From contig OY969564.1 of the NCBI GenBank assembly GCA_963701095.1, positions 2,304,001 to 2,368,000 of the forward strand: a DNA stretch of 64,000 nucleotides, written 5' to 3'. The notes below the pieces were generated by a model that worked only from the letters and a program-made list of their open reading frames with translations, was not told where the DNA came from and did not search any database. Source of the stretch: an uncultured Methanoregulaceae archaeon (GTDB lineage: Archaea > Halobacteriota > Methanomicrobia > Methanomicrobiales > Methanospirillaceae). Shown piece after piece: positions 40,031-62,702 of this stretch; position 1 is the first letter of the stretch; the number at the start of each line of letters is the position of its first letter. The position numbers were made by a program, and so were the translations under genes.

Positions 40031-40048
40031 TGGGGGATTTTTCTAGCG

Positions 40049-40214: not shown

Positions 40215-40261
40215 GTTTGTATGATTATGATACACTACGGTCCCGGACGATTATGGAAAAA

Positions 40262-41368: not shown

Positions 41369-41559
41369 TTCTGACTTCAGTATAGTGTCTGGGAGAATAT
41401 TAGGTTTGGCAGAGGATTTACGAGGTTTTTCGACATTTCATTTGATGTGTGCTTCGTATCCTTATTGAAACCCGGGAATTTTACCCGTCGCTTATTCACG
41501 CTTTTATCCGGTTATTATAGAGGAAAAAGCAATAATTCCTGACAGATAAATCAGTTACT

Positions 41560-42714
41560 ATGGGATCATTCGATCTCGAAAATTTAAAGACTATCAATAC
41601 GATTATTGAGCGGGATAGCAAGGACACGACCTATAAGTTTGCCCTGTTACGCGGTGTTATCGAGATCTCGCAGGAATACCAGCACCTGGTAAAGGAATCC
41701 GGGGATAGTGTTTCGCTTCCTCTTGGTCTTCTCATTGAGAAATGGCTTTTGTACTATTATCCTGTCATTGAAAGCCAGGCATTTTTACCCCAACTGCATG
41801 GCGAGAAACCGGATTCTTTCCACAAGAGGATATCCTTCCGGCCGCTGTTCAGGGAAGTGACGGATTATTATGCAGGAAAGGGCGGCTTTTCGGCCTTCTA
41901 TAATGACTATGTGAATGGGTCCCTTGCTCCTGAAATTTCACCGGCTGTTTATGCATTGATTGCAAAAATCAGGACAACGATAACCACTATGCCTATGAAA
42001 CATCTCGGCCGCTCGCAGGGACACCGGGATTACTCTGTTTTTTCGTACAACAGGGATGCCCGCCGGATTCCCGCCGGGATGCCTGTTGGCCAGGAATCGG
42101 TTGTGCAATATTCCGGGACATTTTCTTTCCGGAAGGACCTTTTCCTGGTATTCCAGTACCTGGGCAGTTTCATCTCCGGTGATGATTCGCTGGTATACCA
42201 ATGGGCTGAGTTTACGCGTAAGGCAAGCGGGGGCACCCTTGCTGTTGCTGCGGTTATGGAAACATTGCGGACTATGCCGGAAACCGAAAGGGCGGTGAGC
42301 GAGGCCCGGCAGGTCTATACCCAGTTGTACCAGAACTATCACCATCTTGCATGCGTGTGGTCCGGGAAGCCGATCACGGATATGGGGCTGCTTCATGTGG
42401 ACCATATGATCCCGTTCTCGGTCTGGAAGAACAACAATCTCTGGAATTTGATGCCAGCATATGAGAGTATTAATGCAAAAAAACGGGATATGATTCCTTC
42501 ACCGGAATTTATTGAAAAAAGAGCGGATGCCATTGTCACGAACTGGAACAGTATGTACAAGGTCTATCCCAAACGGTTCTTGCGGGAGATTAATCTCGCC
42601 CTGGTCGGTTTGCCGGAGCAATCTTCTGGCTGGCAGGATGTAGCTTTGGAACGGCTCGGTGAAAAATGCGCATATCTGATTGATGTCCGGGGGTTTGATG
42701 CATGGCGCCTGTGA
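41560..42714 (+). CDS. HNH endonuclease domain protein
   Basis: N-terminal TYKFALL; CVWSG..HVDHMIPFS..NNLWNL....IN..K.D. Confidence 0.85.
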   Translation: MGSFDLENLKTINTIIERDSKDTTYKFALLRGVIEISQEYQHLVKESGDSVSLPLGLLIEKWLLYYYPVIESQAFLPQLHGEKPDSFHKRISFRPLFREVTDYYAGKGGFSAFYNDYVNGSLAPEISPAVYALIAKIRTTITTMPMKHLGRSQGHRDYSVFSYNRDARRIPAGMPVGQESVVQYSGTFSFRKDLFLVFQYLGSFISGDDSLVYQWAEFTRKASGGTLAVAAVMETLRTMPETERAVSEARQVYTQLYQNYHHLACVWSGKPITDMGLLHVDHMIPFSVWKNNNLWNLMPAYESINAKKRDMIPSPEFIEKRADAIVTNWNSMYKVYPKRFLREINLALVGLPEQSSGWQDVALERLGEKCAYLIDVRGFDAWRL

Positions 42715-43079
42715 AATGTCCTTTCTGTAATCCGCTGGCTGAAGATATTGTCGCACGTAACGATCTCTGCTATGTCCGCTGGGACATATTCCCGGTGAGT
42801 AAGGGGCATTTACTGATTATTCCGTTCCGGCATGTACCGGATTTCTTTTTATTAACTATTGAAGAGAAACAGGCGATGGTTGCTTTGGTTGATGTGTGCA
42901 AGGGTGTTATCGAGGAAAATTTCCAACCGGCTGGGTACAACATCGGGATAAATATTGGCGCAGCAGCCGGGCAGACCGTGATGCACTGCCATTGCCATAT
43001 GATCCCCCGGTATGCCGGGGATGTCCGGAATGCACGGGGTGGGATACGTGGAGTTGTGCCGGGGAAGAGGGAGTATTGA
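42702..43079 (+). CDS. HIT family nucleotide hydrolase (paralog of 39653-40030)
   Basis: HCHCH triad; near-identical to first copy. Confidence 0.93.
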   Translation: MAPVKCPFCNPLAEDIVARNDLCYVRWDIFPVSKGHLLIIPFRHVPDFFLLTIEEKQAMVALVDVCKGVIEENFQPAGYNIGINIGAAAGQTVMHCHCHMIPRYAGDVRNARGGIRGVVPGKREY

Positions 43080-43191: not shown

Positions 43192-43605
43192 ATGACTGAT
43201 GTCTTGACCAAAGAGCAGCGGACATTTAATATGTCAAAGATCCGGGGAAAAAATACCGGACCTGAGATCAAATTAAGAAAAATGCTCTGGTCACAGGGCA
43301 TCCGAGGCTATCGCATCCACTATATACTGCTAGGCAAACCCGATATCGTCTTCACAAAAAAGAAAATCGCAATTTTTGTTGATGGCTGCTTCTGGCACAA
43401 GTGTCCAGTCTGCTTTCAGGCTCCTGAAACCCGAAAAGAATTCTGGATGAAAAAGATCCAGTCAAATGTCGACCGCGATAAAAAAATTAATGATAAGTTA
43501 CAGATTGACGGATGGACCGTAATTAGAATATGGGAGCATGAAATCCGGAAAGAACCTGAAATAGTGATTAAAAAATTAATCAAGAAAATGTCGATATCAG
43601 CTTGA
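43192..43605 (+). CDS. vsr: very short patch repair endonuclease
   Basis: R..NMSKI.GKNT.PE, GKPD, FVDGCFWH, IWEHE. Confidence 0.95.
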   Translation: MTDVLTKEQRTFNMSKIRGKNTGPEIKLRKMLWSQGIRGYRIHYILLGKPDIVFTKKKIAIFVDGCFWHKCPVCFQAPETRKEFWMKKIQSNVDRDKKINDKLQIDGWTVIRIWEHEIRKEPEIVIKKLIKKMSISA

Positions 43606-43629
43606 CATGATTAATTATACCTTTAATCT

Positions 43630-45594
43630 TTAAATTTCCTCATCGCTATCATCGCCGCCGGACTTGCAAATATCGAGGTCTTCTCCTTGAGTTTTATCAT
43701 TTTCTAGGACAGTATCCTCTTCAAGAAGATATTTAATGTCCGGAATTATTGGATTTCCTGCTTTTCCAAAATATTCATCCCGTGTTTTAACAGATTCTTC
43801 ACTGATTAGCTCTTTTTTTAATGATTCCGGGATATCTATCCGGATTTTTTGGACCGATTTCCAGCATTCTTTCTTTTTACACCATTCGGAAATATTTCTT
43901 GATCCCGAAGGACCTTCGGTAATTGTGTTTCTGACTTCCGATGCCAGCTGACCAATAAATTTCTGAAGGGCAGGTGACAGATCCTGCTCCTTCCAGATTT
44001 TTTCAAGATCAATTCGTTTATTGGTCAATTTTGAAAGAATTGCAATAGTATAGGTCACATAATTTCCCTTGTATGGCCCGAAGTCCAGTTTCTTAATAAT
44101 TCCATCCGTTTTTTTGAACAAAATCGCTTTGGCTACAAGAAGCGAGAAGTAATACTTGTCGGGAATCTGAAGCGGACCTTTTTTTTGCTTTAATACAAAG
44201 GCACGGAAATTTTTCTGACTCCCAAGACTGACTATGTCAGGCATCTGATCCCACGAATTTTCATATTTTGCCAGATCTGTTTTTGTAAATCTCTGATGTG
44301 TCGGATTTTTGTCAGAAAAAATTGCTTTCAACTTCGGGGTCCTTTCTCTTTCTTTATCCACCTGATATTGCCCCCGTGCACGTTCATAGTACCAGTGCGT
44401 GTCCTGCTGACTCCCCTTTTTTGCAGGAGCCAAGACAGAACGGGACATTTTCTGGATTTCAATATGGAATTCTTCATTGGATACAAAATCCGATTCAGAG
44501 ATCCTATTCTGACTGTTAGCATATTGAGTGATTTTCGGGACGATAAATTTCATGTCGTTCTGATTTTTCAGAACTGTTAATTTGACCTGAACGAGAACTT
44601 CAGATATGTCACATTTTTCCTTAAAATAGGTATAGTGAATTGCTGCAGTAGTCTGACCGCCATTAACAATCTGAAAATCCCTGATCCAAGAAATGCCGGG
44701 AATACCGCAACTATTCTTTTCCAGTTTGACACACTCAGCAGTTGTCGAAATTCCGTTATTATATGCAAGGAACATGCAAGGTTCATTATGGATAGTTTCG
44801 CGGATTCCTTTGTTCACCTTTCCCTTCATTTGCAGGAATACCCGGATATTCCTTTCAAGAAGCTTTGGCCCGTATTTTCCATATAATTCGGCAACCATTT
44901 TTCCCGGCATTATTGCCAAGTATGATGTGTACCGGGGATTCTCGTTAGGCATTTCAAGACAGGTAAGAGGCGCCCCAAAATCCTTTATAAAATCTATCTC
45001 TATTGGTTCGGGCCGATTTCCTGAACTAGCAAGCCCGAACAATCGCTTTAAATCCCATATCTGATAAGAAATTCTGATTCCGTCTTCATTATCATCAGGA
45101 ATGGGCTCCGGTTTTACAATCCCATCTGTAATGATAAACAGATTTACACCAACGATATTTTCCCTGTTATTATAGATTGTATCGGCAAGATCAAATGCCG
45201 GATTTGATTCTTCAATTTTACCATATTTTTTATTAAGTGCGTTGGAAAGAAAGGTCCTGATCTTTTTGATATATGAATTGATATCAGATTTTGTTACCGG
45301 AATCCGGGAATATTCATTTGTGTAAACTGAAATGAAGAGATCAAAAAAAATCCCCTCTTTGTCACCATTGTTTTGAGTATTAAGGTTACTGTTATACGCA
45401 TTAATTTTGAAGCCTTTTCCTTCTAGGCGGCACAGAATATAATCTTCAATCACTGCAATATCTGTAAGATAATCAAGAAACTTTTCTGTGAACTGCTCTT
45501 CCATGAATGCTTCTGATTCGGGATCTTGGGCTGCATCAATAACATCCCGCTGAAAATTCTCGGCAAATTGTTCAAAATCACTCTCGTTGGTCAC
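43630..45594 (-). CDS. AIPR family protein
   Basis: LLERNIR.FL, F.AYNNGI, QIVNGGQT, ANSQN, YERARGQY. Confidence 0.92.
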   Translation of the reverse strand: MTNESDFEQFAENFQRDVIDAAQDPESEAFMEEQFTEKFLDYLTDIAVIEDYILCRLEGKGFKINAYNSNLNTQNNGDKEGIFFDLFISVYTNEYSRIPVTKSDINSYIKKIRTFLSNALNKKYGKIEESNPAFDLADTIYNNRENIVGVNLFIITDGIVKPEPIPDDNEDGIRISYQIWDLKRLFGLASSGNRPEPIEIDFIKDFGAPLTCLEMPNENPRYTSYLAIMPGKMVAELYGKYGPKLLERNIRVFLQMKGKVNKGIRETIHNEPCMFLAYNNGISTTAECVKLEKNSCGIPGISWIRDFQIVNGGQTTAAIHYTYFKEKCDISEVLVQVKLTVLKNQNDMKFIVPKITQYANSQNRISESDFVSNEEFHIEIQKMSRSVLAPAKKGSQQDTHWYYERARGQYQVDKERERTPKLKAIFSDKNPTHQRFTKTDLAKYENSWDQMPDIVSLGSQKNFRAFVLKQKKGPLQIPDKYYFSLLVAKAILFKKTDGIIKKLDFGPYKGNYVTYTIAILSKLTNKRIDLEKIWKEQDLSPALQKFIGQLASEVRNTITEGPSGSRNISEWCKKKECWKSVQKIRIDIPESLKKELISEESVKTRDEYFGKAGNPIIPDIKYLLEEDTVLENDKTQGEDLDICKSGGDDSDEEI

Positions 45595-46612
45595 ACAGAT
45601 CCCTCCCTAAACCTGACAAAAAATCTGCCTCGCTCACTCTAAATGGAATACACGAAGACAAATCAATGGTATAATGCACATCTCCCACTCCATTTCTCAA
45701 ATCATTTTCAATAATCCGGGGAAACTCATTTTTAACCAGAAAAATATGGATATCCCTGTCAACATAACCACGGGAATCATATTTTATCCTCTGTTTGTCG
45801 ATATATCCGGCTTTAAACAATTGCATCTCAAATTCGTGAACCGGACCTTTTTGTAAAGCAATCTGATTTCGGATTTGATCAATAATTGCAGGAAGTGTTT
45901 CCCCGGTTTCATTTACTTCATGAAGAGAAAGATGATAGATATAGAGTACATTTAATCCTGTATCATCCAGTTGCTGTTCACTGGCAATGGGAATTTTCTG
46001 GTGTTGTTTGGCAATATTTGTTTTCACTTCAACACCTATGCCGGATATCAGGAAATCCTGATTTCCTTTTGAAGGACCTTTCCATGCACGAATGGCTTTT
46101 TCAATTCCAATTCTCGGAAAAAGAATGTCCCGTAAAAACCTCATTTCCCCGTACAGACCCCGCTGATATTCGGGGCTTAAACCCTGCGATCCGAAAACAT
46201 CAAGAAAATGATGCCACATCAACAGACGTTCTATTATTCCTCGGACCATTTGCTTCTGATTCTTTTCCGAATTTGCTGTTTGATAAATATCTTCACAAAG
46301 CGTTGAAAAAATATCGGTAAAGGTCGGATCATTCAGAATAAAACCAACAATTAATGATCCTGGATTGTCATCGTGAAAATTCACGGGGGAAATATCAAAA
46401 CCCCGTAATTGAGGTAACGACCGGAATTCAGCGTAATTATGTTTTTCAACCCGAATGAGGAGCATTCTACGGTTTGCAGGTTTTTCATAACCAAGAAAAA
46501 TGTCATGAGATATATCGGGTGATATTCTTCGGATAATTATCCCATTTTCATCTTCGTTCGCGGATGACTCTTCCAGAATTTTCCAGATTGGATCAAATTT
46601 TTCAGCTGTCAA
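45578..46612 (-). CDS. PD-(D/E)xK motif protein (DUF4420-type)
   Basis: GLYGE, W.GP....QDF....VEVK, I.SE.QL. Confidence 0.85.
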   Translation of the reverse strand: MTAEKFDPIWKILEESSANEDENGIIIRRISPDISHDIFLGYEKPANRRMLLIRVEKHNYAEFRSLPQLRGFDISPVNFHDDNPGSLIVGFILNDPTFTDIFSTLCEDIYQTANSEKNQKQMVRGIIERLLMWHHFLDVFGSQGLSPEYQRGLYGEMRFLRDILFPRIGIEKAIRAWKGPSKGNQDFLISGIGVEVKTNIAKQHQKIPIASEQQLDDTGLNVLYIYHLSLHEVNETGETLPAIIDQIRNQIALQKGPVHEFEMQLFKAGYIDKQRIKYDSRGYVDRDIHIFLVKNEFPRIIENDLRNGVGDVHYTIDLSSCIPFRVSEADFLSGLGRDLCDQRE

Positions 46613-49346
46613 ATTCCTGCTCCCAATAAATGTTATTTACTTTATATGTGATTTTGACTGCTTTTTTGCTATCCGGGAAACTGAATGCAAGACCTATTAC
46701 AGGAATTTTTACATCAACTTTCAGCGGTTTTGGATCCAATGGATAAATTAGCAGAAGACCTCTTGTCGGGGGCCGTGCCGCTCGAATATAAGGTCCGCTT
46801 GGAATTGTTTTTTCATTAAATTCTTTATCGGTTCTATCTGGATCATTTTTCATCAACTCCAAGGCGAGTTTGTATTCCTCGTTTGTTAAATCAATAGATT
46901 CATGCCGTGGGCTGATGATTTGCGCCTTTTGCAGTATATAATTTTCATCTCTTTCGGTCAGACCTATAGTGTGACAATTGAAGTTGTATACATTTGCAGC
47001 TTTTTGTCGGCTAATCAGTGCAATAGTCCAAGATTTCAGTTCTCCAACTTCATTTTGCTTCTGAATATACTGGCGTATTAAATCCGGCCGTATTGTTTTC
47101 GAAAAAAACTGATACTCGTCAAGAATCTGAAAAATAATTTCTGAATTTATACCACTCCAGATTGGCGTATCACCCTTCATTGTTGAAGTGGTTCCCATTT
47201 TTTTAACAATATTTTCGATGCAGTTCAGATTATTCTCCAGAGTCATTGGGTCTTTGCTGAAAGATGTGGTCTGGGGTTTTGAATTCGAAAATGTACACTG
47301 CATTTCAGTACCGGATCTCATTTTGTTCACCGCAGTGATTTTCAGACCTTCCGGATGAGTTCTCACTCGGAGCCCATAATCCGCGGGGGTCGCTTTCAGG
47401 GATGCCATATAATCGAATTCATTTCGTAAGTCTTCCGAGGCCATGTTGATAAATGAATACCATTCAACAAGTTCATGTGAGGTATAGAGCCGGCATAAAT
47501 CAATATATCCCGGCCTGAATCCGAACCATCGTCCCATCTGCATCAAGGTATCGTACATTCGTGAAGCACGGAGATAGTAACTAACTGTGAGCCCTTCGAG
47601 TGTGAGACCGCGGGATAATTTATCTCCCCCGATTGCAATGATACTGATACCGTCCGGATTATCCTTGTAATCAAGGGCATCTTTAGCCGTTCCGTTAATT
47701 ATTTTTATTCGGATTTTTGCAGCAGCTGCATAAAGATTTGATTTTACTGAAGCCCAGTCAACATTCGTGAGAAGTGGATCATCTATGCGCCGGGTGATAT
47801 CCGCTGTTGTTGGTACATAGTCTTCCCGCCAGAGGTTTTCCATCTCCCGGTAAATGCTTGTTTCTGAGTCCGGGTTCTCATATTCTAACCGGCGTCTTTG
47901 GGCTGTAAGTTCAACACTAATGAGAGCTGCAAGTTTGTCCTGTACGGATATGTATCGTGTAACATGCACAAGCATAGAGTTATGACATCTTGTCTCGCCA
48001 CGAGATTTTCTAGCAGCACATGAAATAATGAACGCATTAATCGCTCTCTTTAGAGATTCTGGTAATTCTTCTGGATTGAAAAATTTTGTGTGTTTATCCG
48101 GTATTAATGTCTCATAATCTCGGATAATACGGATAATGGGTAACCCCGCTTCTTTTTCGGAATCCGGGTCATCGTCCTGTGTAAAGCCAAAAATTTGTGA
48201 AGGCCCCACATAATTAGGAGGAGGAGGAAGGTTGATTATAAAATCTCTTGGGAAAAGATCCTCACCATGCGTTGTTGTCTCTCCATCAGGATAAATAAAA
48301 ATATTTGCGAACGGCGTTGCCGTATATCCAACATAAGCACTTTTTTCGAAATGATGCAATAGCTCACGGATTTTTCCGTTGATTGCGCTGACATCATAAT
48401 CGGGGAGAGGACGATCGTTTTCATCACGTGGGATAGGATTCGTATTCACTGACGCATTATCTGCTTCATCATCAATAACAAGCAAAGGGATATTCCGGAC
48501 AACAATTTTATCTGTGTTCGGATCTCTCTGACCTTTGACACTAATCGCCCATTTGATAAGATTTGCTAAAACCGATTTCTGTTTTTTTACAACAAGGATT
48601 ACTGGATCAGTACCCCCCGGCAATACTCCGACTTGTTGAGCCACTCTTTTATTAAAATCTCCATTATCTTCACTACTGGTGAGAGAACTGACTGCAAATA
48701 ATTCCTCGCCGGGCAGTTTTCCGACCCCTGTTCGCAGATTTTCCGTATCGAATTTTCTCCCACGTCTTGTATCAAATCCCAAAAAACCTTCGTCAAGACG
48801 AAGCTGGGTTTGGCTTCTGAGGCTTTTATGCATCCCTGCAAGGACAATAACAAGTTTATATCCTGCATCCGCAGCTTTGCAAATCAGACCCGTGTAGTTG
48901 GAAGTTTTTCCGGACTGAACCTGCCCGACTACCATCCCCCTACGATCCCATTCACCTTCACGGAGTGGATACTCGAGGAGTTCAAGAACCTTGTCAGTGA
49001 GTTCATCGATACGGATAATTGATGATTCATGAATCCCCTTTTCTTCCATCAGATAGCGCTGGTATCTATTCCAGAATTTCCATTTTATCTGACTTTTTCT
49101 GTCAGGGAGCCAAGCAATATGGGTTTTCTGATTATCTTCAAGAATCGTTGCCCGGCCTTTCCAAATTTCACAGCGGGATTCAATGTCCCGGATCAGATAT
49201 TCGATATCAAACGGCTCAAAATTTTTTTCCTCCTTGATCATTGAAAGGACACGTTCACATTTTTGCCGGATAATCTCTACTGTCGGTGTTTGCTCACTCT
49301 TGAGCATTATGAGAACGTGCTGTCTTGCTTGATCAATTGAAGACAT
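46602..49346 (-). CDS. Z1 domain-containing helicase-like protein
   Basis: GQVQSGKT, IDDEAD, YTATPFAN, LSRGLTLEGL, DTLMQMGRWFG. Confidence 0.92.
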   Translation of the reverse strand: MSSIDQARQHVLIMLKSEQTPTVEIIRQKCERVLSMIKEEKNFEPFDIEYLIRDIESRCEIWKGRATILEDNQKTHIAWLPDRKSQIKWKFWNRYQRYLMEEKGIHESSIIRIDELTDKVLELLEYPLREGEWDRRGMVVGQVQSGKTSNYTGLICKAADAGYKLVIVLAGMHKSLRSQTQLRLDEGFLGFDTRRGRKFDTENLRTGVGKLPGEELFAVSSLTSSEDNGDFNKRVAQQVGVLPGGTDPVILVVKKQKSVLANLIKWAISVKGQRDPNTDKIVVRNIPLLVIDDEADNASVNTNPIPRDENDRPLPDYDVSAINGKIRELLHHFEKSAYVGYTATPFANIFIYPDGETTTHGEDLFPRDFIINLPPPPNYVGPSQIFGFTQDDDPDSEKEAGLPIIRIIRDYETLIPDKHTKFFNPEELPESLKRAINAFIISCAARKSRGETRCHNSMLVHVTRYISVQDKLAALISVELTAQRRRLEYENPDSETSIYREMENLWREDYVPTTADITRRIDDPLLTNVDWASVKSNLYAAAAKIRIKIINGTAKDALDYKDNPDGISIIAIGGDKLSRGLTLEGLTVSYYLRASRMYDTLMQMGRWFGFRPGYIDLCRLYTSHELVEWYSFINMASEDLRNEFDYMASLKATPADYGLRVRTHPEGLKITAVNKMRSGTEMQCTFSNSKPQTTSFSKDPMTLENNLNCIENIVKKMGTTSTMKGDTPIWSGINSEIIFQILDEYQFFSKTIRPDLIRQYIQKQNEVGELKSWTIALISRQKAANVYNFNCHTIGLTERDENYILQKAQIISPRHESIDLTNEEYKLALELMKNDPDRTDKEFNEKTIPSGPYIRAARPPTRGLLLIYPLDPKPLKVDVKIPVIGLAFSFPDSKKAVKITYKVNNIYWEQEFDS

Positions 49347-50874
49347 TAAGTGGCCTCACTTTCTTTAAACTGCATGAATTCTGTCACATATTTGGGATAA
49401 TCGGAAAACGGTTCCATATGAATCAGCCGCAATTTTGCATTTTCCGGGGATATCCCCGTGTTAATCATCGAACTCCAGATCTCTTCCAAAACACTTTTCA
49501 ATTCATCAGAGGGAGCACCTTCAAATGGTCGCTGGATTTTATCCGGATTATTCGAGCCATTCATGATTATCAGAGGGACCGGGACTGTTTCCTCGATAAT
49601 CCGAAGCATTGCCTGGATTTTTTTTCTTGACACTCCGGAATTTTGGAGGATATCAGAAACTAATGGATGATCCCGGTTAATGGAATAATGATAGTTTCCA
49701 TGTAGGACTAATGTAGACCAAGGGAATGTGATAGAAGATTCACTGGTTCGTTCTGCAACTTTTCCTCGAAAACGGAACACAGATATCGCTTTATCAATCG
49801 TAAGACGGGAGATGCGCTGAAAATCATCCCTGATAAGATTCGGAGGTCTGGCAACGGACTTCTTGACATCAATTTTCCAGTCGCCATCAAGCGAATTGGG
49901 AATATCAACCATTATACGGGCTAATTTGGTAAATTGTTCTTTTCTGATTGGCTGTCCCTTCATGGATTCCAAACCCAGCCAGTCCCCCGGAACGATCAGA
50001 CGTTCATTGCGATAAATATAGAAACCCTGACGTTCGTTCCATCCCCCGGACCCCCGGCTAGTTCATAAGTCTCGTCATCAAGTTTTGAACGATGAGGTAA
50101 AACAAAGGGTTGGATAGTGATTTTTTTACTATTATAGAGAATATTCTCATGGGGCAGATGTTGCGTTGACGGGTGATTCGTCAGAAACGGATCCCAAGGC
50201 TTTATTTCCCTGCCGTTAAGAATGATTTTCAAACTACGGGGTTTGACAAGAAATCGATGAAAAACCATTTCGAGGTGCTTTTTCATGATGTCAAGCTGCG
50301 CTAAAAAATGATCCTTGTGTTTTTTATTCGTAGAATCTGTCCCTTTCGTTATTCTGTCCATCTTTTCCCATAGGACAATTGTTCCACATTTCATATCATC
50401 AAGAACAGAAAAAACCGGGGGAATATTTTCTTTATTAGGTTTAACGAGACGCCACTCCCCACATAAATTTACGTAATCCAGATCCCAGAAACGGATAACC
50501 GTTTCATTCCCTTCGGATTTTGATCCCACAGTAAGTTTCCGACATTGTGAAAACGATGCTGTTTTCAATCCAAGACCAAATCTCCCGAGGTCTTTGGCAT
50601 CTCTTTCTTGGAGGGGATTTTTGCTCCCGGGTCGCATCGCATTTTTCAGAGCATTTTCGGTCATTCCATGACCATCATCTCTGATAGAAATCGTGGAATT
50701 CTCCCCATCCCATGTACAATCAATCCAGATATTCTGTGCCTCGGCATAAATGCTGTTATCAATTACATCTGCAACGGAAGTCTCAAGATGATACCCATAT
50801 GCCCGAAGTGTTTCAATCATCGCACCGGCGTCAGGGGATACAATATCATAAAAATCGGAAAGGGTTGTATCCAT
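49346..50874 (-). CDS. MORC/MutL-like GHKL ATPase (apparent 1-nt frameshift ~50045)
   Basis: DVIDNS, DDGHGM, DLGRFGLGLKTASFS; restoring one G gives GGWNERQGFY into the 49346 ORF (W.IDVKKS). Confidence 0.9.
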
Positions 50875-50951
50875 TCAGATCATCACTATCGAGAGAGATT
50901 TTTTGTATATTGATAATTATAGTATGATCTGTATTATCTATTGTGTTTTAA

Positions 50952-52223
50952 TTATTCGGATGAGTTTAGCATTTTATATATTTTTTGGGCAATCCCCTCT
51001 GCCATCAATGGTGGAACAGCATTCCCTATCTGAACATATTTTGCAGATCGTGGTCCTTCAAAGAGATAATCATCAGGGAAAGACTGGATTCGTGCCGCTT
51101 CCCTTACCGTTAGTGATCGTGCTTGGGTTATATCGGGATGAATAAAATAATGACCATCTTTCGCTAGATGAGCAAGAATAGCATGAGAAACAGAATTTTT
51201 GTCTACCACCTTATATCGATCAAGAAATGCACCACGGTTTCGATGGGTTTTGAGTTCTTCCGGAAGATCATTATAATTTAATCTTTGACCGGATTTATCC
51301 CATTTTTTTATTACGATGCGATAAATTTCCCGATCTCTCTCGTTATGCCACCTTGCCTGATGATGGCGGACTTTACCGATTTCAGTTCTCATTTCTTTAT
51401 CGATTAGATATTTTGATTGGCGGCCTGTTCTGTAAGATTGTATACCATCATTGCCCTCACCGGCTTGGAGTCGGGGCAGATCAATGAGAAGATCTTTCAC
51501 TGTACCGGTATGTCTTTTACATGGAAATTCCGGATAACTGAAATCATCCTCTTTCCTCCAGCCAATGAAAATTATTCGCTGTCTGTCCTGCATCACTTCA
51601 AAATTTGATGCATTGAGAACATGAGCAGTTTTATCCAGATGATATCCGAGTCGGGAACATCCATTTATTACATCATTGAAAATAGTTCCTTTTTTCGCGC
51701 TGATGAGGCCGGGAACATTTTCAAAAATGAAAAGCCGTGGCTGAAACTCCTTTAAAAACTGATGATAATGCCGGTAAAGGTAATTTCTTGGATCATTCTC
51801 TGATTTCTTCCCGTTTTTTCCCCGACCAGCAAGAGAATAGGATTGACAGGGAGGCCCCCCGATAATGACATCAACATCAGATCGGTGATAACAGTTTTTC
51901 AGTGTCGATTTAAGATCTGCAATAATGGAATTATTTGCAGAATCTGATAACATTCTATTTATGACCCGTGGGGATTCGAACCCCTCCTCTTCTGACATTT
52001 GAATAAATTGCTCACGGTCAATTTCTCCCCGATAATATTGATTATAAAGAGCCGTTTTTCCGGCATCTTTGAGATTGTGATACAATATCCGAGTTTCCAG
52101 TGTATCGGCAGCATTTTTATCCATCTCGATGTGGCCTAGGAAATCAAAAGAATGCCGAACAAATCCTTCAGTTAGTCCCCCGCCTCCGGAGAACATATCG
52201 AGAACAAGAAACTTTGAAGGCAT
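50952..52223 (-). CDS. dcm: C5 DNA cytosine methyltransferase
   Basis: DMFSGGGG, GGPPCQ, FENV, Q.R.R, REAARIQSFP, QIGNAVPP. Confidence 0.95.
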   Translation of the reverse strand: MPSKFLVLDMFSGGGGLTEGFVRHSFDFLGHIEMDKNAADTLETRILYHNLKDAGKTALYNQYYRGEIDREQFIQMSEEEGFESPRVINRMLSDSANNSIIADLKSTLKNCYHRSDVDVIIGGPPCQSYSLAGRGKNGKKSENDPRNYLYRHYHQFLKEFQPRLFIFENVPGLISAKKGTIFNDVINGCSRLGYHLDKTAHVLNASNFEVMQDRQRIIFIGWRKEDDFSYPEFPCKRHTGTVKDLLIDLPRLQAGEGNDGIQSYRTGRQSKYLIDKEMRTEIGKVRHHQARWHNERDREIYRIVIKKWDKSGQRLNYNDLPEELKTHRNRGAFLDRYKVVDKNSVSHAILAHLAKDGHYFIHPDITQARSLTVREAARIQSFPDDYLFEGPRSAKYVQIGNAVPPLMAEGIAQKIYKMLNSSE

Positions 52224-52328
52224 TGTCTAGTTGTTTTTGCCAGGATTGATATTAATTGTGACTGTTTAAATTAATGGAAAAATCACTAACTGTGTTGTTA
52301 ATGTTCAGTGAAAGAGGATAATATTTGG

Positions 52329-52665
52329 TCATCCCAGCCACCCTATCAGGCACGCCATATATTTCCCGGACTAAGTTAGGAAAACAAAAACATTCCTTCT
52401 GCTTTCTCCCGGATGATCAGTTTGTTTTGTTCCAGTTTCGACAAGATGGTCTTGTCGAGTTTCATTAGCTGCCTGCTCTGGACGCCGCGTTTTTTCTCTC
52501 ACTCAACTTAAGAGAATAACGTCTCGAACCCTTGCACATGCTGGTCCCGGAGAACTTCAAAGATATCTTTAGTTCTCATTGGTTTATCCTTCTTGTATAG
52601 GAACATGAGGATATACTTCCCATTTTCACCGGGCTGCATAAATGCAAAGTTAACTACCTCATTCA
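52329..52665 (-). pseudogene. winged-helix regulator C-terminal remnant with internal stops
   Basis: ILMFLYKK.KPM..KDIFEVL..*..SRQLMKLDKTILSKLE..LI.REK..LT*SG. Confidence 0.5.
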
Positions 52666-52800
52666 CATCAGGAGTCTGGCAGATACTGCACCCGTGAAGG
52701 TTGACCTCTTCTCGGTCCGGCAAAATCCTTTGCCATAACACAGTAAAGGTTAACGTCGTGCGACATCGCAGCCATCGTCATTCCCCCGCCTTCTGTCCTA

Positions 52801-54837
52801 TCAATGCGCTTGTCCTGGGAGGATGAAGGTTAAGGCATTCCTGTCTTCGGAAAAATCATCGTCCCATTCAGAATGTCGCCAGTAGTCATCGAGATCCCGG
52901 GTCTTCAGGTACGAAGAGTAGATCTTGTACGCAAGGTTAGCGATCATGTCTGGTCCCTCGCTGTTCGTCACCAGCCCGCTGCCCGGGTGACTGAATGTGA
53001 ATTTGTCGCCGGTCCACCGCTTCTGCAGCGCTTTCATTTCCGCAAGCAGCCGTTCATCGGCGGGGTACTTGATCTGCCCTTCGCGCATACGCTCCTCAAG
53101 GTTTTCGTATATCTGCATCTTGTGTTCCGGCGTGTACGGGGTTTCCTTCAGCCCGAAATCAAGGGCAAAGCGCTGCCTGACTATGCCGGTCGCATGCTCA
53201 TCATGAACTAGGGTTTGGACGCGGTATCCTTCGCACAGGAGATTGATATCGTACAGTGCCTTTTTCCAGTTGAGCTGGTTATCCTCCGGCAGCCAGTACC
53301 GGACCAGGTCAATAATGACCGAATCGCCTTCCATGTGACCGATGCAGAACCAAAGGACATCTCTGCGCCGGCTCGTACCAAGGGCTCCCTGATACTTGTC
53401 TGAGTACGTAAACGAAAACCACGATTCCTGCTGGCTGTTGCGGTCGACGAGTCCCGGGGAAAACATTGCATTCCGATCAGCGTTGTTTACCCCGAACGTC
53501 AGCATTAACGCATCAGCTCTATCAGGGCTGGACAAGCCCCGGCGTTTCATATCGTCTTTACTCTCGATCAGGATCTGTCCCCGGCTGTTGACCTTGTACC
53601 GGATGCCGGCCAGCTGGGTAACCAGAGCCTCATCATCAGGGATAGTGATATCACCAGACTCAAACCGGGACCGGAGAGCAAACCACCATTCAGCCCGGGC
53701 GTTCCCATACCGTTCCTTATTCTGGGCCGCAGAGCCGCTCTGCATCTCCACGACTGAAATCTTCTGCTCGTTAAGCCGGTCGAAGACACCGGCACCGACA
53801 CCAACACTATCGATCTTTGCAATGGTCGACCCCGTCTCACGCATGGCAAAAATAATCTCCCCGGCAGTGGTCATGGTATCGGACATCGGCAGCACCTTCC
53901 AGATCCGGGCCGCAGATCCCTGCCGGAGCATGATAACAGTCTCATCTCCACCGAACCGGGCAACATCAACACCGAGCTCCACCGGCTCCGTTGCATCAAG
54001 ATTCCGGTCAACCGCAGCCTCAATCCAGTGCAGAGGGATCAGGGTATTATCGCCAGAAGACGGGAACTGTGCAAGCACCTTGGAATGATACAGTGGTGAA
54101 TCGGTACCCCACTGCTTCACGCGGTCAGATACCCAGCCCGGCGAAACCAGGTACGGGGCTGGAAGACTGCCGGTAACCTTAGTCCCCCACGTACCGCTAA
54201 TGATATCCTGTTCCGTAATACCAAACCTGGTAAAGTTCGGGGTATCGTACGCCGATATCGTGATCTTCGATGCATGGGAGTTAGATGAAAACTCTTTGTA
54301 AAACCGGCCCGATGGGTTCAGCGGGTTACCTATCATCAGGAGACGAGATTCATCCGAGGTGAGCACACCATCAATTGCATCGAAAATATCTTCCGAGACA
54401 CCGCTGGACTCATCAGCGACTACGAGGATAAACGGTGCATGGAATCCCTGGAACTTATCACCGGCATGTTCCGGAGAGGTGAATCCCATCGCAAACCAGT
54501 CGTTACTGATCTTAAGTTCCTGCATCAGGCATTCCCCGTCTAACGGCACTTTTGCCCGCTGGAAACCAGCCCGGATCTCTTTCCAGAGGATCCCGGCAAC
54601 TTGGCGGTCGGTCGGGGCGGTCGTGATGACGATCGATTGAGGATGGTTGTACAAAAACCACAGCGAAGCATCGGCGGCAACGAAGGATTTCCCTGCAGCA
54701 TGACAACTTTTTACCGCAGTCACTTTATGATCCCGGATGCTTTCGAGGATTTGCACCTGCTTTTCCCATGGAGTATGGCCGAGCACTTCGCGTACCCAGA
54801 GCCCGGGGTCGAGAAGGTACCGGATTGCGCTTGTCAA
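52801..54837 (-). CDS. terminase large subunit with an extra C-terminal degenerate nuclease-like domain
   Basis: Walker A SCHAAGKS, Walker B VVADES, IGNP, LGVDVA..GGD, SPDRADA; GGAGGTG SD then TTG at 54837. Confidence 0.88.
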   Translation of the reverse strand: MTSAIRYLLDPGLWVREVLGHTPWEKQVQILESIRDHKVTAVKSCHAAGKSFVAADASLWFLYNHPQSIVITTAPTDRQVAGILWKEIRAGFQRAKVPLDGECLMQELKISNDWFAMGFTSPEHAGDKFQGFHAPFILVVADESSGVSEDIFDAIDGVLTSDESRLLMIGNPLNPSGRFYKEFSSNSHASKITISAYDTPNFTRFGITEQDIISGTWGTKVTGSLPAPYLVSPGWVSDRVKQWGTDSPLYHSKVLAQFPSSGDNTLIPLHWIEAAVDRNLDATEPVELGVDVARFGGDETVIMLRQGSAARIWKVLPMSDTMTTAGEIIFAMRETGSTIAKIDSVGVGAGVFDRLNEQKISVVEMQSGSAAQNKERYGNARAEWWFALRSRFESGDITIPDDEALVTQLAGIRYKVNSRGQILIESKDDMKRRGLSSPDRADALMLTFGVNNADRNAMFSPGLVDRNSQQESWFSFTYSDKYQGALGTSRRRDVLWFCIGHMEGDSVIIDLVRYWLPEDNQLNWKKALYDINLLCEGYRVQTLVHDEHATGIVRQRFALDFGLKETPYTPEHKMQIYENLEERMREGQIKYPADERLLAEMKALQKRWTGDKFTFSHPGSGLVTNSEGPDMIANLAYKIYSSYLKTRDLDDYWRHSEWDDDFSEDRNALTFILPGQAH

Positions 54838-54874
54838 AGCATGCACCTCCGGAACACCAAAAAATGCCCCGACA

Positions 54875-55369
54875 TCATATCCCCGCCTCCTCAAGCGCGG
54901 CCAAAAGTTCAGCATGGATTTCGGGATGTTTCGATAAAATACGCATGAGAACCGGCCACTCCGGGGACGTTGTAATAGTCTGGACGCCGACATTTACTTG
55001 GACGGCAGTCTGGTTTCTGGCATTCAGCTCCCCGGTAACCTGTCCCAGCAGCTCTACACAACCCCGGGCTTCCCGGATCGCACTTATTGCTGTCCGCAGG
55101 TCGCCGGCTGTCTCTGCCTTGTTCATGTACGAGATCGATTTGCTGAGGAGACCTTTTGTCCACTTTAGGAGATCCTCTCCATTGGCGATCTGTCGTGCCT
55201 CTTCAGCTTTTGCGACAGATGCCGAAATGTGACCAGCTTTTTGATGATCGTAGAGGCTGCTTTTCGTGGCACCGAATTGTTTAGCGATAGTCCGGAGGGA
55301 TGTACCTCTGATAATTTCCTGATCAATTTCTGTGCGACTTTTGTGTGCACAAATACAACATTTTTTCAT
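54875..55369 (-). CDS. putative terminase small subunit (CxxCxH + HTH)
   Basis: KCCICAH..EID..SLRTIAKQFG..SL..H, helical middle region, directly upstream of terL. Confidence 0.65.
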   Translation of the reverse strand: MKKCCICAHKSRTEIDQEIIRGTSLRTIAKQFGATKSSLYDHQKAGHISASVAKAEEARQIANGEDLLKWTKGLLSKSISYMNKAETAGDLRTAISAIREARGCVELLGQVTGELNARNQTAVQVNVGVQTITTSPEWPVLMRILSKHPEIHAELLAALEEAGI

Positions 55370-55694
55370 TAAATCAACTCTTTTACAAAACACCCGGATT
55401 GCAAGTTGTAATCATACGAATACTATCAGGATCATTTTCCCGCGCATTGCCCGTCGAATGGAAAGTTCAGGTCGAAATACAAGAGCCTGAACTTCAAGGA
55501 AAAAGATGAGAAAAGCGCCTTTGTAATCGACAATGTCAAGCTGAAAACCGGGCATCGAATACGTTGGCGTTCCAGAAAATTATAAAGGTAAAATGAAATT
55601 CGGCAAAAACAAAAAAAAAGAGAAGAATCGATAAAAGAGGAATATATCAGGTTTTTTGCGGATTGCTCAAAATGCTCAACTATATTTCAGGGTA

Positions 55695-55734
55695 AGCCCA
55701 CGCGGCACAGGGCAGCGAGCCCCGTTTGAGCGTC
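55695..55734 (-). repeat. dispersed structured repeat, copy 6 (inverted)
   Basis: Reverse complement GACGCTCAAACGGGGCTCGCTGCCCTGTGCCGCGTGGGCT. Confidence 0.75.
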
Positions 55735-55933
55735 TCCTGCCTCTAAAATACCGGCCGGCCCCCATTATTCCTCAATGTGCGACAATGAATAAACAGGATT
55801 CATATTTCATGGCTGGCTTTTCCCTGAAGTAATCTTTTAACCACACGTAACGTGCAAACACCGGATTTTAGATGCAGAATGTATTGATTTCAATTTTGGT
55901 ATATAAAAAAATAAATGATAAAACTGTGATTAA

Positions 55934-56572
55934 GTGAATTGTATGGTACCAGATAAGAACAGTGGCAATCAGGGGTCGGAGAAACCAGGGGACCACATCT
56001 TATTCGCATACTTGTGTAACCGACAAAAACAAATGAGTGATGATTTTAATGCAATGGATCAGAAATTCGCACAAATTATTGCCTTTAACGGCGTAATATT
56101 GGCGGTTCTCATTATTGGGATAGATCCAGCGAAAGCGGCACATTTTCCCGTTTGCCTGGGAGGAATAGTAATAATTTTCGCAAGTGCGTTTCTTTCAGGA
56201 ATTGTGTACTCCCCTAAAAAATATGACGATGGTCTTGAAAATTTCTGGACAGGATGGAATGATAGTAAAAATGATTCCCGGGGGGATACGCCACGCCCGA
56301 ACAAATTAATGAGACTGTTCTTTCCAAAAAAACGAAATGTTAATGAAAGACAGAAGTTTCCTGTTTATTCATTAGATGAGATATACAGGCCGGAAGAGAA
56401 CAACGAGGTTGTTCCACAACCAGAATTGGGAGAGATAGATACCTATAACAAATTGTTATTAAACTCAATCATCAACAATTCAAACCTGAATGATGACAAA
56501 GCCGATATTTTTGGAGTTGTTTTACTGCTCCTTTTCGTGGGTTTGGCTTTTGTGATACTAGGGTATTATTAA
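55934..56572 (+). CDS. 3-TM hypothetical membrane protein
   Basis: AT-rich ORF; D.K..QIIAFNGVIL, two N-terminal TMs and one C-terminal TM. Confidence 0.65.
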   Translation: MNCMVPDKNSGNQGSEKPGDHILFAYLCNRQKQMSDDFNAMDQKFAQIIAFNGVILAVLIIGIDPAKAAHFPVCLGGIVIIFASAFLSGIVYSPKKYDDGLENFWTGWNDSKNDSRGDTPRPNKLMRLFFPKKRNVNERQKFPVYSLDEIYRPEENNEVVPQPELGEIDTYNKLLLNSIINNSNLNDDKADIFGVVLLLLFVGLAFVILGYY

Positions 56573-56655
56573 CATTTTAATGAAGGATGAACTTTGGTCC
56601 AGTCAACTGGCTTTGCCATTTCGGCAAAATCAAAAAGGAAAAGAGTGGGATTGGA

Positions 56656-57743
56656 TTAACGGGTTTTTGGGATACCGAACAGGGTAAAACATCCCAGTTT
56701 CTGGCAGGTGGTAAACAAATCCATGCCCGGGGCTACCAGACCCGGCAAACCAAACATACCGATTATATAATACGCGGCTGCAAGACAAACGATGCCAAAA
56801 CCTGCACCCAGTACCATCCCGGCCGCCGAATACGGGCGATAAGGAATAACCTGGTCGTTTGTCTTTCGAGCCGCTGAGTACGCGTAATACACGCCGTAGA
56901 GCCAGATAAGGATGCCAGGGACAACGGAGAACATCAGTCCCACACCGGTGCCAGAGCTATTACCATGCCCTCATCGGATCGTCCGTTGTATGCCTGGCCA
57001 AGCCCCGGGATAACCAGCGAGAGGACAGCAGCATTCTGCGGGTTTTTGTAATAAGAGTCAGTGTCCGGGGTTTCCTGCAGGGATTGTTCCCGTATATACG
57101 TACTGAGTTTTGCGATGATCTGCTCGTTCTGGCCGGTGTCAATCCCTATCCATCTGCGACGTGGTCGGAACAGGTATTGTGAAAGGGATCCGTTGTTTGG
57201 AACATGAACACTGGTGTAAACGCTCTGAATTTGTATCAGGCTTGAGTTCATGCCTTTCTTCTCAATGGTGAACCTTACCATGCTGATCCCACCATTGAGC
57301 GTTTCAGTAGTGGCATGAACCGTGCCGGTATCAGGATTCGCATTAATAATTTTTGCAGAAGGAAGTAACGGGACCGCGAGTTTGCAGAGAAGAAATGCCC
57401 GTTCAAACGGGACAGCGATTTCCAGGTCACTTTCCCGCAGGAAATATTTGTCGCCCAGGGACTGCCAGTCATTGACCTGGTGCTGTCTGTTCTCTGCATA
57501 TTTTGTACGATTGTAGTAAAAGTATACGAGGAGACAGACGAAGATAAGGAAGCAGCCAGTGACAACCTCTGTATTCAGAATTGGAGGAAGTTCCGGGCCA
57601 GAAAAAGAACTCAGGCCAATCCTGTGGTAGTAATTCAGGCTAATCAGGATAGAAATTAAATAGATGACTATACCGCAGATGATGAGGAGGAAAAAAGCAA
57701 TTATTATTTTTCGTTTTGAGGATTCCTGCACTGCTGTACTCAT
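56656..57743 (-). CDS. membrane protein with TM2-like motif (apparent frameshift ~56953)
   Basis: KNP..AAVLS..IPGLGQAYNG joins frame with IW.YGVY.AY..A. Confidence 0.65.
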
Positions 57744-60643: not shown

Positions 60644-62702
60644 ATGGCGCCCGGTACTGACCAGTCAAATGAATTTTACGTAAAACACCTCCGGGTCACC
60701 TGCCACCACATCGACAGCCTTCTTGGCGAGATCGAAGGTATCCTCTACGAGTCCTCATCGAAAACCGCATTTCCGGAGTATGTCATGGACCTTACCCCGG
60801 CGCAACAGAAGACGATCGAGGATTATATCACCCGAATCCGGGCCCGTCTCGTCCAGGTAATGGAAGGGCAGGGGATTGGCAGCAGCAAGCCCGGCATTCC
60901 CGTCTCGCGGGCTGTTCATGCCAGGCTGTATACCATCGATATTGCGGCCGAAGAACTAAAACCGCAATACATGATGGGGTTCGGTAATATCCCCGACAGC
61001 ACCGCAACAGAACTCAATGGCATTGCGGGGGAGTTGCAGGCACTTGTTTCACGCCTCGGCCAGTATCTTAACCAGGGAACCGGGCAGGATTTCCGGGAAC
61101 GGCTGCAGCGGCTGGAAGGGGCAGGTAATGACCTTTCCCTCCTCGCCCGGATCGAACAGGTTGTCGCGAAACGGGGACTGGTGGAATTCCGGGGGACGAT
61201 CGATGCGATCCTCGACCGTGCCGAGGACCGGAGTTTTGAGATCGCGGTCTTCGGGCGTGTCAGCTCCGGCAAGTCGTCTCTCCTCAACGCCGTCATCGGG
61301 ACTGACATCCTGCCGGTGGGAGTGACCCCGGTTACGGCCGTCCCCACGCGTATTATCTACGGGGAAAAACCATCACTTTCGGTATCGTTTGCCGATGCAC
61401 CGGCAAGGACGTTTCCGATCGAACAGCTCGGGGAGTTCGCTACCGAACAGCACAACCCCAATAACGCAAAGCATGTGACCGGGGTCACTGTGACCATCCC
61501 GGTATCGAGCCTCTCCCAGGGGGTTTCCTTTGTTGATACGCCGGGTCTCGGTTCACTTGCCACAGGAGGTGCTGCCGAGACCCTTGCGTACCTGCCCCGG
61601 TGCGATCTCGGGTGGTCCTGATCGATGCAGGATCCACGCTGACCGAAGAAGACGTCCGGACCATCCGTGCGTTGCAGGAAGCTGCCATTCCCGCACATAT
61701 CCTGCTCAGTAAAGCAGATCTCCTCGACCGGCCTGACTGCGAAAAGACCATCGGGTACATCACGCAGCACATAGCATCAGGGACCGGCCTTTCCCTGCCG
61801 GTCCATCCGGTCAGTGTCCACCCCTCGCACCGGAAGCTGCTCGACCGGTGGTTAGGAGAAGAGATCCTCCCGGTCATGAGCCATTCGCAGGACCTCCGGA
61901 CAGCGTCGTTACAGAGAAAGATTGGTGCATTACAGGAATCCCTGGTGTATTCCCTGCAGAACCAGATCCGGCGGAACCGGCACACACCTGCGGGAAATGC
62001 AGAAACCTTCAAGGCGGTCGAAATCCGTCTGCGAAGGGCAACCGGTCTTATCGTGGAGACCACAAAAGCATGCAGGGAAAAGGCCGATGCCATGGACGGG
62101 AAGGTTTTTGAAACCTGGATCGCCGCTGCTGCAGGTGCCACAAACAACAGGCCGGGGGACGCTGACAGAAAGATTCCTGCGGAAGATGCGATCCGCACCG
62201 CTCTCCTCCAGACCGTGCAGGGTGGGATACAGGATATCCGGGAACAGATCGAAACCCTTGCCAGGAGCCTGCAGGACGAGCTCGTAAAAAGTGCGGCAGA
62301 CCTCGTCATTACCGATGTGCCCGGAGATAATGAATTCCTCTTGCTGGTCCGGGATATGCCGGCCTTCGATCCCGGAACGATCCAGGTCACGGTGCCCGCA
62401 TACCTATTCACCGCGTTGCGGCAGAACAGGCTGGGAAAAAGCTGCTGGAACGCAGGATACGCCGGCAGTTTTCCGAATCTACCGGACTGGTCTTTGCCAG
62501 TTACTTCAGGATCCTCAAGGAATGGACAAGCCAGGTGACGGGCCGGATGGGCCAGAAATTCGAGACCTATGCCGAACGATACCGGGCACAGGCAGAACAA
62601 TCACCCCCGGGGCAGGAGCTGACAACGGATGAGGTGGGCGCTATCGAGGAGGATCTTAAAATGCTCGGTGACGCTGCAAAAGACAAAGAAAGGCCCGGTT
62701 AA
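60644..62702 (+). CDS. dynamin-like GTPase (apparent frameshifts ~61612 and ~62440)
   Basis: GRVSSGKS, LPVGVTPVT, DTPG, SKAD; third frame ends at TAA 62702. Confidence 0.82.

Follow-up and report, generated by a model that had tools for sequence, protein, structure and literature searches.

A second, apparently inactive nuclease-fold domain in the terminase large subunit of a portal-less locus in a methanogen chromosome

The large subunit of terminase (TerL) is among the best-studied of viral machines, and its make-up – an ATPase joined to one nuclease – is treated as fixed. A gene from an uncultured Methanoregulaceae archaeon raises the question of what a TerL is doing when this make-up is exceeded: its product continues for some 220 amino acids (aa) beyond the usual end, and the gene lies next to a presumed small subunit (TerS) with no portal gene beside it. 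The stretch of DNA analysed here (the window) is 64,000 nucleotides (nt) long (contig OY969564.1, positions 2,304,001 to 2,368,000). It is archaeal chromosome, encoding ribosomal protein L15e, the RNase P proteins p30 and Pop5, a proteasome alpha subunit, thermosome and prefoldin, and the closest homologues of its TerL carry the source names of Methanoregula and other Methanomicrobiales metagenome-assembled genomes. An earlier account made from the letters of the window (the sequence-only reading) had described a complete ATPase and RNase H-like nuclease, an intact frame running on into a second nuclease domain in which the first catalytic Asp has become Gly, and no adjacent portal, capsid or tail gene; it had offered a satellite packaging module with a helper capsid as one interpretation. 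What is the additional domain, where did it come from, and what might it do at a locus of this kind?

Two nuclease folds in one chain

Up to the point at which most of its relatives end, the window protein is a recognizable TerL. In PHROG, phrog_2 (terminase large subunit) matches aa 74-514 (E 2.5e-36), and phrog_5902 and phrog_7579 match aa 57-242; in Pfam, neither the protein nor its two nuclease pieces taken singly gave a family, even at E 10. Among PDB sequences, a profile made from the family matched the TerL nucleases of phages E217 and Sf6, including 8dkr and 4idh. The features by which a TerL is recognized – an ATPase of the additional-strand, catalytic-glutamate (ASCE) class with Walker motifs, and an RNase H-like nuclease with acidic metal ligands – are present by sequence. 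The residues concerned are invariant in ten aligned homologues: G101, K102 and S103 of Walker A, D194 and E195 of Walker B, and the acidic residues D343, D350, D395, D491 and D494 of the first nuclease. By its sequence the canonical part looks enzymatically competent; the sequence-only reading had called it complete. Most relatives are 465-510 aa long and end soon after the motif SPDRADAL, and the window protein and a few others run about 220 aa past that end.

These last 220 aa (the add-on) are a second domain with the fold of a TerL nuclease. At E≤10, a profile built from four add-on sequences matched four sequences in PDB. TerL nucleases take the first three places (5tge, 5m1q and 5m1f; E 0.0095-0.027) and a portal protein takes the fourth (E 1.1). 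Against 1.84 billion representative proteins the same profile gave 423 matches at E≤1e-3; among the matches listed, proteins of about 450-600 aa were aligned in their C-terminal part, and shorter proteins were present too. An AlphaFold2 (AF2) model of the add-on, built on an 11-row alignment, shows a mixed alpha/beta core (mean predicted local distance difference test, pLDDT, 82; predicted template-modelling score, pTM, 0.78), with low confidence at its end (pLDDT <50 for model residues 194-209; block means of 47-50 over the last 30 residues). With this model, Foldseek returned 5m1f as the best match (E 9.8e-9; template-modelling, TM, scores 0.63/0.73), followed by 5tge, HK97, D6E, Sf6, T4 and SPP1. 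There were 51 matches at E≤1e-3, and nearly all of those listed are TerL nucleases. The RNase H fold that had been inferred for the C-terminal region is thus borne out by profile matches, model and structural comparison alike. The AF2 model of full-length TerL is too poor (pLDDT 53.6, pTM 0.34) to speak to the packing of the domains.

The sequence-only reading had also set residues of the two nucleases side by side. These parallels hold at the level of profile and fold, and not in pairwise comparison: a direct BLASTP of the add-on against the first nuclease of the same protein is not significant (E 6.4). The hidden Markov model of the add-on touches the equivalent helix of the first nuclease, which is the second of the three parallels drawn earlier, with independent E-values of 0.15 in the window and of 0.003 and 0.0011 in relatives.

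Elsewhere in the same genome a 541-aa canonical TerL, of a second TerL lineage here labelled type B, has a nuclease domain with 47% identity to aa 508-730, the add-on. A tree of 27 nuclease domains built by maximum likelihood unites the add-ons of six TerLs with two short orphans (support 91/94); this group is nested in a clade with canonical type-B TerLs (100/100), outside which lie 11 more distant TerLs. Since the add-on is nested among type-B TerLs, it is by this tree a nuclease domain captured from a different TerL lineage, and the nesting together with the identity to the type-B protein rules out internal duplication of TerL's own nuclease. The second nuclease domain of the sequence-only reading is therefore real as a domain, and what changes is its probable origin. 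A single capture is compatible with the tree of nuclease domains; in a smaller tree of the TerL N-terminal part, long forms are interleaved with short forms, and at least three gains or losses are needed.

The captured domain appears to be catalytically dead. Every one of the 40 canonical domains that align at the column of the first metal-binding Asp of TerL nucleases (strand 1) has this residue (7/7 type-B and 33/33 distant TerLs; 7 further distant rows are gapped there). None of nine add-on or orphan copies does; they have G, G, C, A, A, V, G, G and I in its place. In the window the residue is Gly539, the replacement that the sequence-only reading had noted. The third acidic position is Asp in 47/47 canonical rows and in 5/9 add-ons, and the fourth is Asp in 7/7 type-B TerLs and in 3/9 add-ons; the window copy retains three of the four acidic positions. 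Other residues are kept throughout: the GH pair after strand 2 is found in 9/9 add-ons, and GH, W, Y, P and L, together with W, G and H of the tail, are invariant across the copies. The three tail residues, usually found at the very end of the protein, are also present in type-B TerLs with complete ends. That the tail as a whole is better conserved than the core was not borne out (30-60% vs 28-52% identity).

Rates of change differ between the parts of the protein. Between long forms, the ATPase is 68-75% and the first nuclease 67-73% identical, and the add-on 26-48%; the two closest long forms share 91% identity in the first nuclease and 61% in the add-on. Canonical type-B TerLs with 71-75% identity in the ATPase are 60-61% identical in the nuclease. 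By this gap at similar ATPase identity, the add-on evolves much faster than its active type-B relatives, at about twice their rate. Among the strain differences listed (40 more exist), nine fall in the add-on, five synonymous and four non-synonymous, which is a small sample; the LVHDE motif of the add-on shows synonymous strain changes only.

The add-on is not confined to one protein or to one arrangement. It is carried by at least six TerLs, in which its frame is open (P0001/P0004, P0006, P0009, P0016/P0285, P0015 and P0125). It also exists on its own, in proteins of 212-216 aa that make up a cluster of 12 members (contigs of up to 50 kb), and as the second half of P0284, whose N-terminal half belongs to phrog_27743 (E 4e-34), the family of the nuclease open reading frames (ORFs) of split TerLs. 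Compared with 227 other genomes of the family, P0284 found matches in 20, a few of them fragments or matches to its add-on half. Searches for more long forms yielded little: with the add-on alignment, IMG/VR gave 31 pattern matches and no confirmed case; genome contigs gave one locus; a metagenome scan gave seven loci, namely the window's own sequence, five canonical type-B TerLs and one TerL 3' end; and a word search with aa 511-730 gave two proteins.

Gene neighbourhoods of the TerL clade

TerLs from 77 IMG/VR loci and 5 genome loci, 18 database proteins and the window protein, 101 in all, were placed in one tree. A single clade (19 rows, support 99) takes in all the long forms in the tree, all five portal-less loci, and none of the 77 IMG/VR TerLs. 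Five loci of this clade have context (the window, L024, L025, L027 and L028), and none has a portal. The long-form locus L024 reads primase, TerS, TerL and a 204-aa ORF, with the contig ending 1.5 kb further on. L025 has an integrase, then primase, TerS, TerL, a 142-aa ORF and a tape-measure-like protein of 575 aa, with cellular genes on both sides and no capsid or portal match among the ORFs tested. L027 reads primase, TerS, TerL and small ORFs, and L028 reads TerS, TerL and small ORFs. TerS and TerL alone are common to the five loci. Three of them (L024, L025 and L027) have a primase upstream; the primases of L024 and L027 are 62% identical, and that of L025 falls in the same PHROG primase families.

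Across about 43-60 kb of the window, neither Pfam nor PHROG gave a match to a portal, capsid, protease or tail gene, which agrees with what had been read from the sequence. The TerS-like gene upstream of a usual TerL is present and the portal gene downstream is absent, in the window as in the four related loci. This is not the rule among viruses. The comparison set consisted of 61 IMG/VR loci with at least 2 kb downstream of TerL and an ORF of at least 280 aa within 2.5 kb (in one more locus with 2 kb downstream, no ORF of this size lay in that range). In these the next large ORF is a PHROG portal in 46 cases, a head-morphogenesis protein in two, a methyltransferase in one, and without family in 12 (E≤1e-5); a Pfam rescan of four of the 12 gave one Portal_Mu match. 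In another genome (L026), a 67%-identical TerL is followed by portal, protease/capsid and tail genes. Close relatives of the window TerL do not lie in complete proviruses, as the five clade loci without portal show, and the terminase pair in the window has beside it none of the portal, major capsid protein and tail genes that stand beside the terminase of a complete provirus. Judged as satellites, which bring their own integrase and primase and have no capsid or portal of their own, the window and related loci share the second property; the first is seen in L025, with a primase also in L024 and L027, and is missing within about 10 kb of the terminase pair in the window.

The type-B lineage offers a comparison from within the same genome. 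Downstream (3') of its TerL are two small ORFs, which we take from their sequence to be a HicA/HicB-type pair, followed by ORFs of 343 and 248 aa and, further on, a gene for a Ser/Thr kinase-TPR protein. The 343- and 248-aa ORFs correspond (97% and 94% identity) to one 595-aa protein that follows type-B TerL in metagenome contigs. This protein has no PHROG or Pfam match; it resembles portal clusters in a protein atlas (language-model likeness, score 0.96; PF06381), and by its position and this likeness it is a putative portal, which we treat as a lead. A predicted complex of the add-on with the putative portal scored 0.01, a value that weighs neither way on binding.

A second, unrelated kind of element with a similar layout is, by its gene content, present in the same family. 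L132 reads primase, TerS-like gene, split TerL, Neck1-like gene, tape measure and integrase; its split TerL (9465-12248) consists of an ATPase ORF and three tandem phrog_27743 nuclease ORFs. L133 (9577-10988) has a primase, a TerS-like gene, the ATPase ORF and one phrog_27743 nuclease ORF only. The ATPase ORFs of the split TerLs are 266-276 aa long. Neither locus gave a portal or capsid match among the ORFs tested.

The coordinates of the features discussed are collected in the table below. Both the TerL and the TerS-like reading frames are present and unbroken, in keeping with the earlier description of the frame as intact. The start of TerL is probably further in than the first ATG: its homologues begin with 'MTSxIRYLLDP' in alignment, the corresponding point in the window is a TTG at 54837, and since the homologue starts match there and GGAGGTG precedes it by 6 bases (the TerS stop lies 37 bases before), we take a protein of 678 aa to be the more likely one. 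Long relatives of 683 and 677 aa are of similar length. The TerS-like gene lies directly upstream of TerL in 5/5 clade loci (31-57% identity); its product has a weak HTH_7 match in Pfam (E 0.0036) and no PHROG match. The 77-aa ORF downstream of TerL has no counterpart in L024, L025, L027 or L028. To the 5' side of the terminase pair are genes for membrane proteins, a GNAT protein and a Kelch-repeat protein. An Rfam scan of 52000-57000 gave no match at E≤1.

Table. Positions of the terminase genes, their domains and other features (window coordinates unless a locus is named; aa numbers count from the first ATG of TerL)
Feature	Position	Strand	Remarks
TerL ORF, long form	52801..54993	-	730 aa from first ATG; phrog_2
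ATPase domain	54031..54825	-	about aa 57-321; Walker A around K102 (54685-54708), Walker B LVVADES (54406-54426)
First (type-A) nuclease	53464..54030	-	aa 322-510; phrog_2 E 1.5e-9 on the piece alone
Add-on	52804..53463	-	aa 511-730; TerL nuclease fold, type-B ancestry, degenerate active site
Gly539 codon	53377..53379	-	column of first metal-binding Asp of TerL nucleases
C-terminal tail	52804..52872	-	aa 708-730 (..SEWDDD...ILPGQAH-end); W...G..H skeleton; predicted disordered
TerS-like gene	54875..55369 (or 55393 from upstream GTG)	-	CxxC and helix-turn-helix N-terminus; assigned by position only
77-aa ORF downstream of TerL	52508..52741	-	weak DUF6293_C winged-helix match, E 6e-4
Low-GC island	43192..52223		Vsr, AIPR, DUF4420 (PD-(D/E)XK), Z1, HATPase_c_3 (two ORFs), Dcm C5 cytosine methylase (Pfam)
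Type-B stretch, truncated and provirus-like	L003 (G000:C1:98000-117900)		DUF1064 resolvase-like, Dam, DUF4238, ParB-like, phrog_11143, TerS, TerL

Something of the history of the locus can be read from a congener (G086), in which 159 nt of the add-on stand at the syntenic place, no more than 52 bp after a dynamin-like gene (88% nucleotide identity), with unrelated genes next. The piece covers aa 612-664, with 87% nucleotide and 77% protein identity; in the window 7 kb separate the dynamin-like gene from TerL. Most simply read, the common ancestor already had a long-form TerL here, and it has been almost wholly deleted in the congener. In the window lineage about 2.5 kb of TerS and TerL remains open with all motifs, and the difference between these intact frames and the relic hints at selection; independent insertion is the alternative. 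Sequence of the locus is found in peat, bog, wetland and soil metagenomes: 20 runs from 13 studies have part of it, and 15 have at least half of the sampled words. Pieces of TerS and TerL, among them 53419-53642 across the domain boundary, are covered to a depth of 2-5 by contigs from three RNA libraries, in which carry-over of DNA is possible.

The low-GC island beside the terminase genes (GC 0.38-0.42 vs about 0.50 nearby) is found in three congeners at 72-89% nucleotide identity, and the same three gave no DNA match to the terminase genes at E≤1e-20. Since the island recurs without a terminase match, it is a separate module, and the idea that it is cargo of a terminase element is weakened. 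Its HATPase_c_3 gene (49346-50874) is in two ORFs of 292 and 208 aa, in different frames and 23 nt apart; it may be frameshifted and the system broken.

Other features of the window deserve brief record. The dynamin-family GTPase gene (60644-62538) consists of two overlapping ORFs (325 and 312 aa), where a congener has a single ORF of 682 aa (L134 8426-10474), which suggests a frameshift or an assembly error. A stretch of high depth at 55695-55737 (plus strand), upstream of TerS, was considered as an attachment (att) site and rejected: it is one of five copies in the window of a dispersed, GC-rich intergenic repeat of about 45 nt (AGCCCACGCGGCA...GAGCGTC). The four minus-strand copies (43121, 40075, 38534 and 17552) lie downstream of plus-strand genes, and the depth in a peat metagenome reaches 357 against 6-9 in the flanks. 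Two HIT-family genes (39653-43079), 88% identical over 477 nt including flanks, bracket genes for Fic and HNH endonuclease proteins. Two adjacent genes for T4 gp19-like tail-tube proteins (16572-17516; E 1.5e-37 and 8.7e-11) are 35 kb away from the terminase genes and may be part of a contractile injection system or of a particle resembling a tail. The nearest integrase gene, of the tyrosine type (23043-24317), is followed by ORFs without family match; it stands 30 kb away from that pair, and nothing was seen that links the two.

What the added domain may do

How, then, is the locus to be understood? The reading that we put forward, and hold tentatively, is that it is the stripped remnant of a satellite-like, capsid-less element, in which the dead domain would be a non-catalytic adaptor, possibly for the portal of a helper. 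Confidence differs among the parts of this reading: it is high for the anatomy, moderate for a satellite-like lifestyle of the clade, and low for the mechanism of docking. A satellite packaging module using a helper's capsid, as the sequence-only reading had it, is a fair description of the clade, because its loci, L025 included, have no portal; for the window copy it holds only as a stripped remnant, with no primase or integrase in about 10 kb. The element, integrating in a Methanoregula-like methanogen, would bring its own TerS and TerL and borrow its capsids. The dead nuclease domain and its flexible tail would act together as a non-catalytic adaptor, the add-on most likely supplying the element's own terminase with the portal-docking surface of a type-B helper virus. 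Docking to a portal is preferred because TerL's nuclease domain and its C-terminal tail are held to be the parts that face and contact the portal (PMC5389665). The window copy would have lost primase and integrase, its two reading frames staying intact. A bolder version, which we consider unlikely, makes the add-on a portable portal-docking adaptor by which elements of the integrase-primase-TerS-TerL kind load their DNA into the capsids of unrelated type-B viruses; the pair in the window could then begin packaging in situ and take the adjoining Dcm/Z1/AIPR island along into helper capsids, in the manner of lateral transduction.

Several observations weigh against the adaptor and its helper. 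The sole type-B provirus in the genome is broken, its putative portal frameshifted into the 343- and 248-aa pieces, and the portal identity of the 595-aa protein is drawn from position and language-model likeness only. The add-on query found no type-B TerL in IMG/VR, and a protein search of 401 genomes of the order brought up nothing resembling type B, and the long form in only one other genome (G274). Neither a helper virus nor a capsid gene or an encapsidated form was seen, in material consisting of genes and contigs, where metagenome and RNA contigs cannot show encapsidation. With no integrase or primase within about 10 kb of the terminase pair, the window copy cannot be a self-sufficient element. 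Related short-form TerLs occur in the same portal-less contexts without the add-on, which is therefore not needed for that lifestyle. In the tail the motif skeleton alone is kept, its percent identity not rising above that of the core. Fast evolution and the further acidic losses (third Asp in 5/9, fourth in 3/9) are also compatible with slow decay, and loci of this kind do decay, as the congener's relic shows.

These last points are also in keeping with an accident: a chimera produced by illegitimate recombination of two proviral TerL genes, with a functionless domain drifting in a provirus relic. The add-on evolves much faster than the rest of TerL and sits on long branches, its acidic residues have been lost piecemeal, both terminase loci of the genome are in truncated contexts, and the congener keeps nothing of the gene beyond its 159 nt. 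A lone thaumarchaeal TerS-TerL pair has been read as a likely relic, in the part of Krupovic et al. 2019 (PMC6563490) cited here. A drifting domain, however, would not be expected to leave a frame of 220 codons open in six TerLs that are just 26-61% identical there, nor to be modelled as a confident fold with GH, W, Y, P, L and the tail W, G and H invariant. The add-on is moreover carried by a split-TerL nuclease and by the 12 stand-alone cluster members, and the gains or losses called for by the N-part tree mean that the domain was kept or moved repeatedly. An accidental chimera in decay is on this balance rather improbable. We give a similarly low place to a pseudo-enzyme that handles DNA, in which the dead domain would either grip DNA or, paired with the active nuclease, regulate or bias its cutting (by single-strand nicking, say, or by auto-inhibition until packaging ends). 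The domain folds like a DNA-binding nuclease, three of four acidic positions survive in the window copy, and the three tandem nuclease ORFs behind the split ATPase of L132 mean that multiple nuclease modules recur; the vestigial, inactive nuclease domain of the phi29 TerL still binds DNA, as reported in the excerpt of PMC13595956 used here. Yet the add-on family as a whole has not kept the acidic positions, and DNA handling leaves both the foreign TerL ancestry and the invariant tail motif unexplained.

Least probable, in our view, is a domesticated interference protein – a TerS-TerL pair kept by the cell as an anti-viral device, whose chimeric TerL competes for the type-B portal or DNA and so spoils packaging. 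The pair does lie beside an island of Dcm, Z1, DUF4420, AIPR and Vsr genes, its frames are intact although the congener lost the gene, the add-on derives from a virus lineage that has infected this genome, and contigs from RNA libraries touch both TerS and TerL, which is weak support since DNA can occur in such libraries. But the island is a separate module, found without a terminase DNA match in three congeners; relatives of this TerL accompany primase and integrase genes, as in a mobile element; intact ATPase and nuclease motifs are unnecessary for a mere competitor; and TerL and TerS gave no match to a defence family, though no search was aimed at one. Among the readings considered, the stripped remnant of a satellite-like element with a non-catalytic adaptor is the one that we prefer, if tentatively.

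A dead second nuclease domain of foreign TerL ancestry, if recurrent and selectively retained, would be a new TerL architecture, and the TerL clade that it marks has its place in capsid-less elements integrated in peat methanogens. Which part of TerL contacts the portal is still argued, with the C-terminal tail set against an ATPase domain facing the portal (PMC5389665, in the passage cited); the chimeric TerL would be a natural experiment on which part carries capsid and portal specificity. Were these elements satellites with their own terminase, satellite biology would extend to archaeal tailed viruses, with a route for moving chromosomal islands between methanogens; were the add-on a docking adaptor, they would be the first satellites of archaeal tailed viruses to hijack capsids by means of a chimeric TerL.

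Comparison with known systems

With canonical TerLs (G20c and P74-26, 5m1f and 5tge; HK97, 6z6d; Sf6 gp2) the window protein shares the ATPase, the RNase H-like nuclease and the TerS-like gene upstream. It differs in having two nuclease-fold domains per chain, the second without the first Asp and from a foreign lineage, and in having no portal gene next to it; a literature search found no description of a TerL with a second nuclease domain. The packaging ATPase of phi29 has likewise kept a TerL-type nuclease fold after catalysis was lost, and this fold is said to bind DNA (PMC13595956, excerpt). In phi29, however, the vestigial nuclease is the sole C-terminal domain of a virus that needs no cutting, whereas the domain described here is an extra one behind an apparently active nuclease.

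Similar in gene content is NitKor-E1, an integrated element of a thaumarchaeon in which TerS and TerL are likewise the sole virus-like genes, accompanied by an integrase; the function of this pair was called enigmatic in the portion of Krupovic et al. 2019 (PMC6563490) cited. NitKor-E1 is a single element with no reported extra domain in that portion, and a whole TerL clade is seen here, with a primase in three of five loci; the two are set apart by description only.

[quoted passage not shown] PICIs carry TerS or a factor that redirects TerS, and are not known to carry TerL. In the cf-PICIs and the Streptomyces satellites TerL is found together with portal and capsid genes (PMC10690885, in the part cited). 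The clade loci differ from these in having TerS and TerL without portal or capsid.

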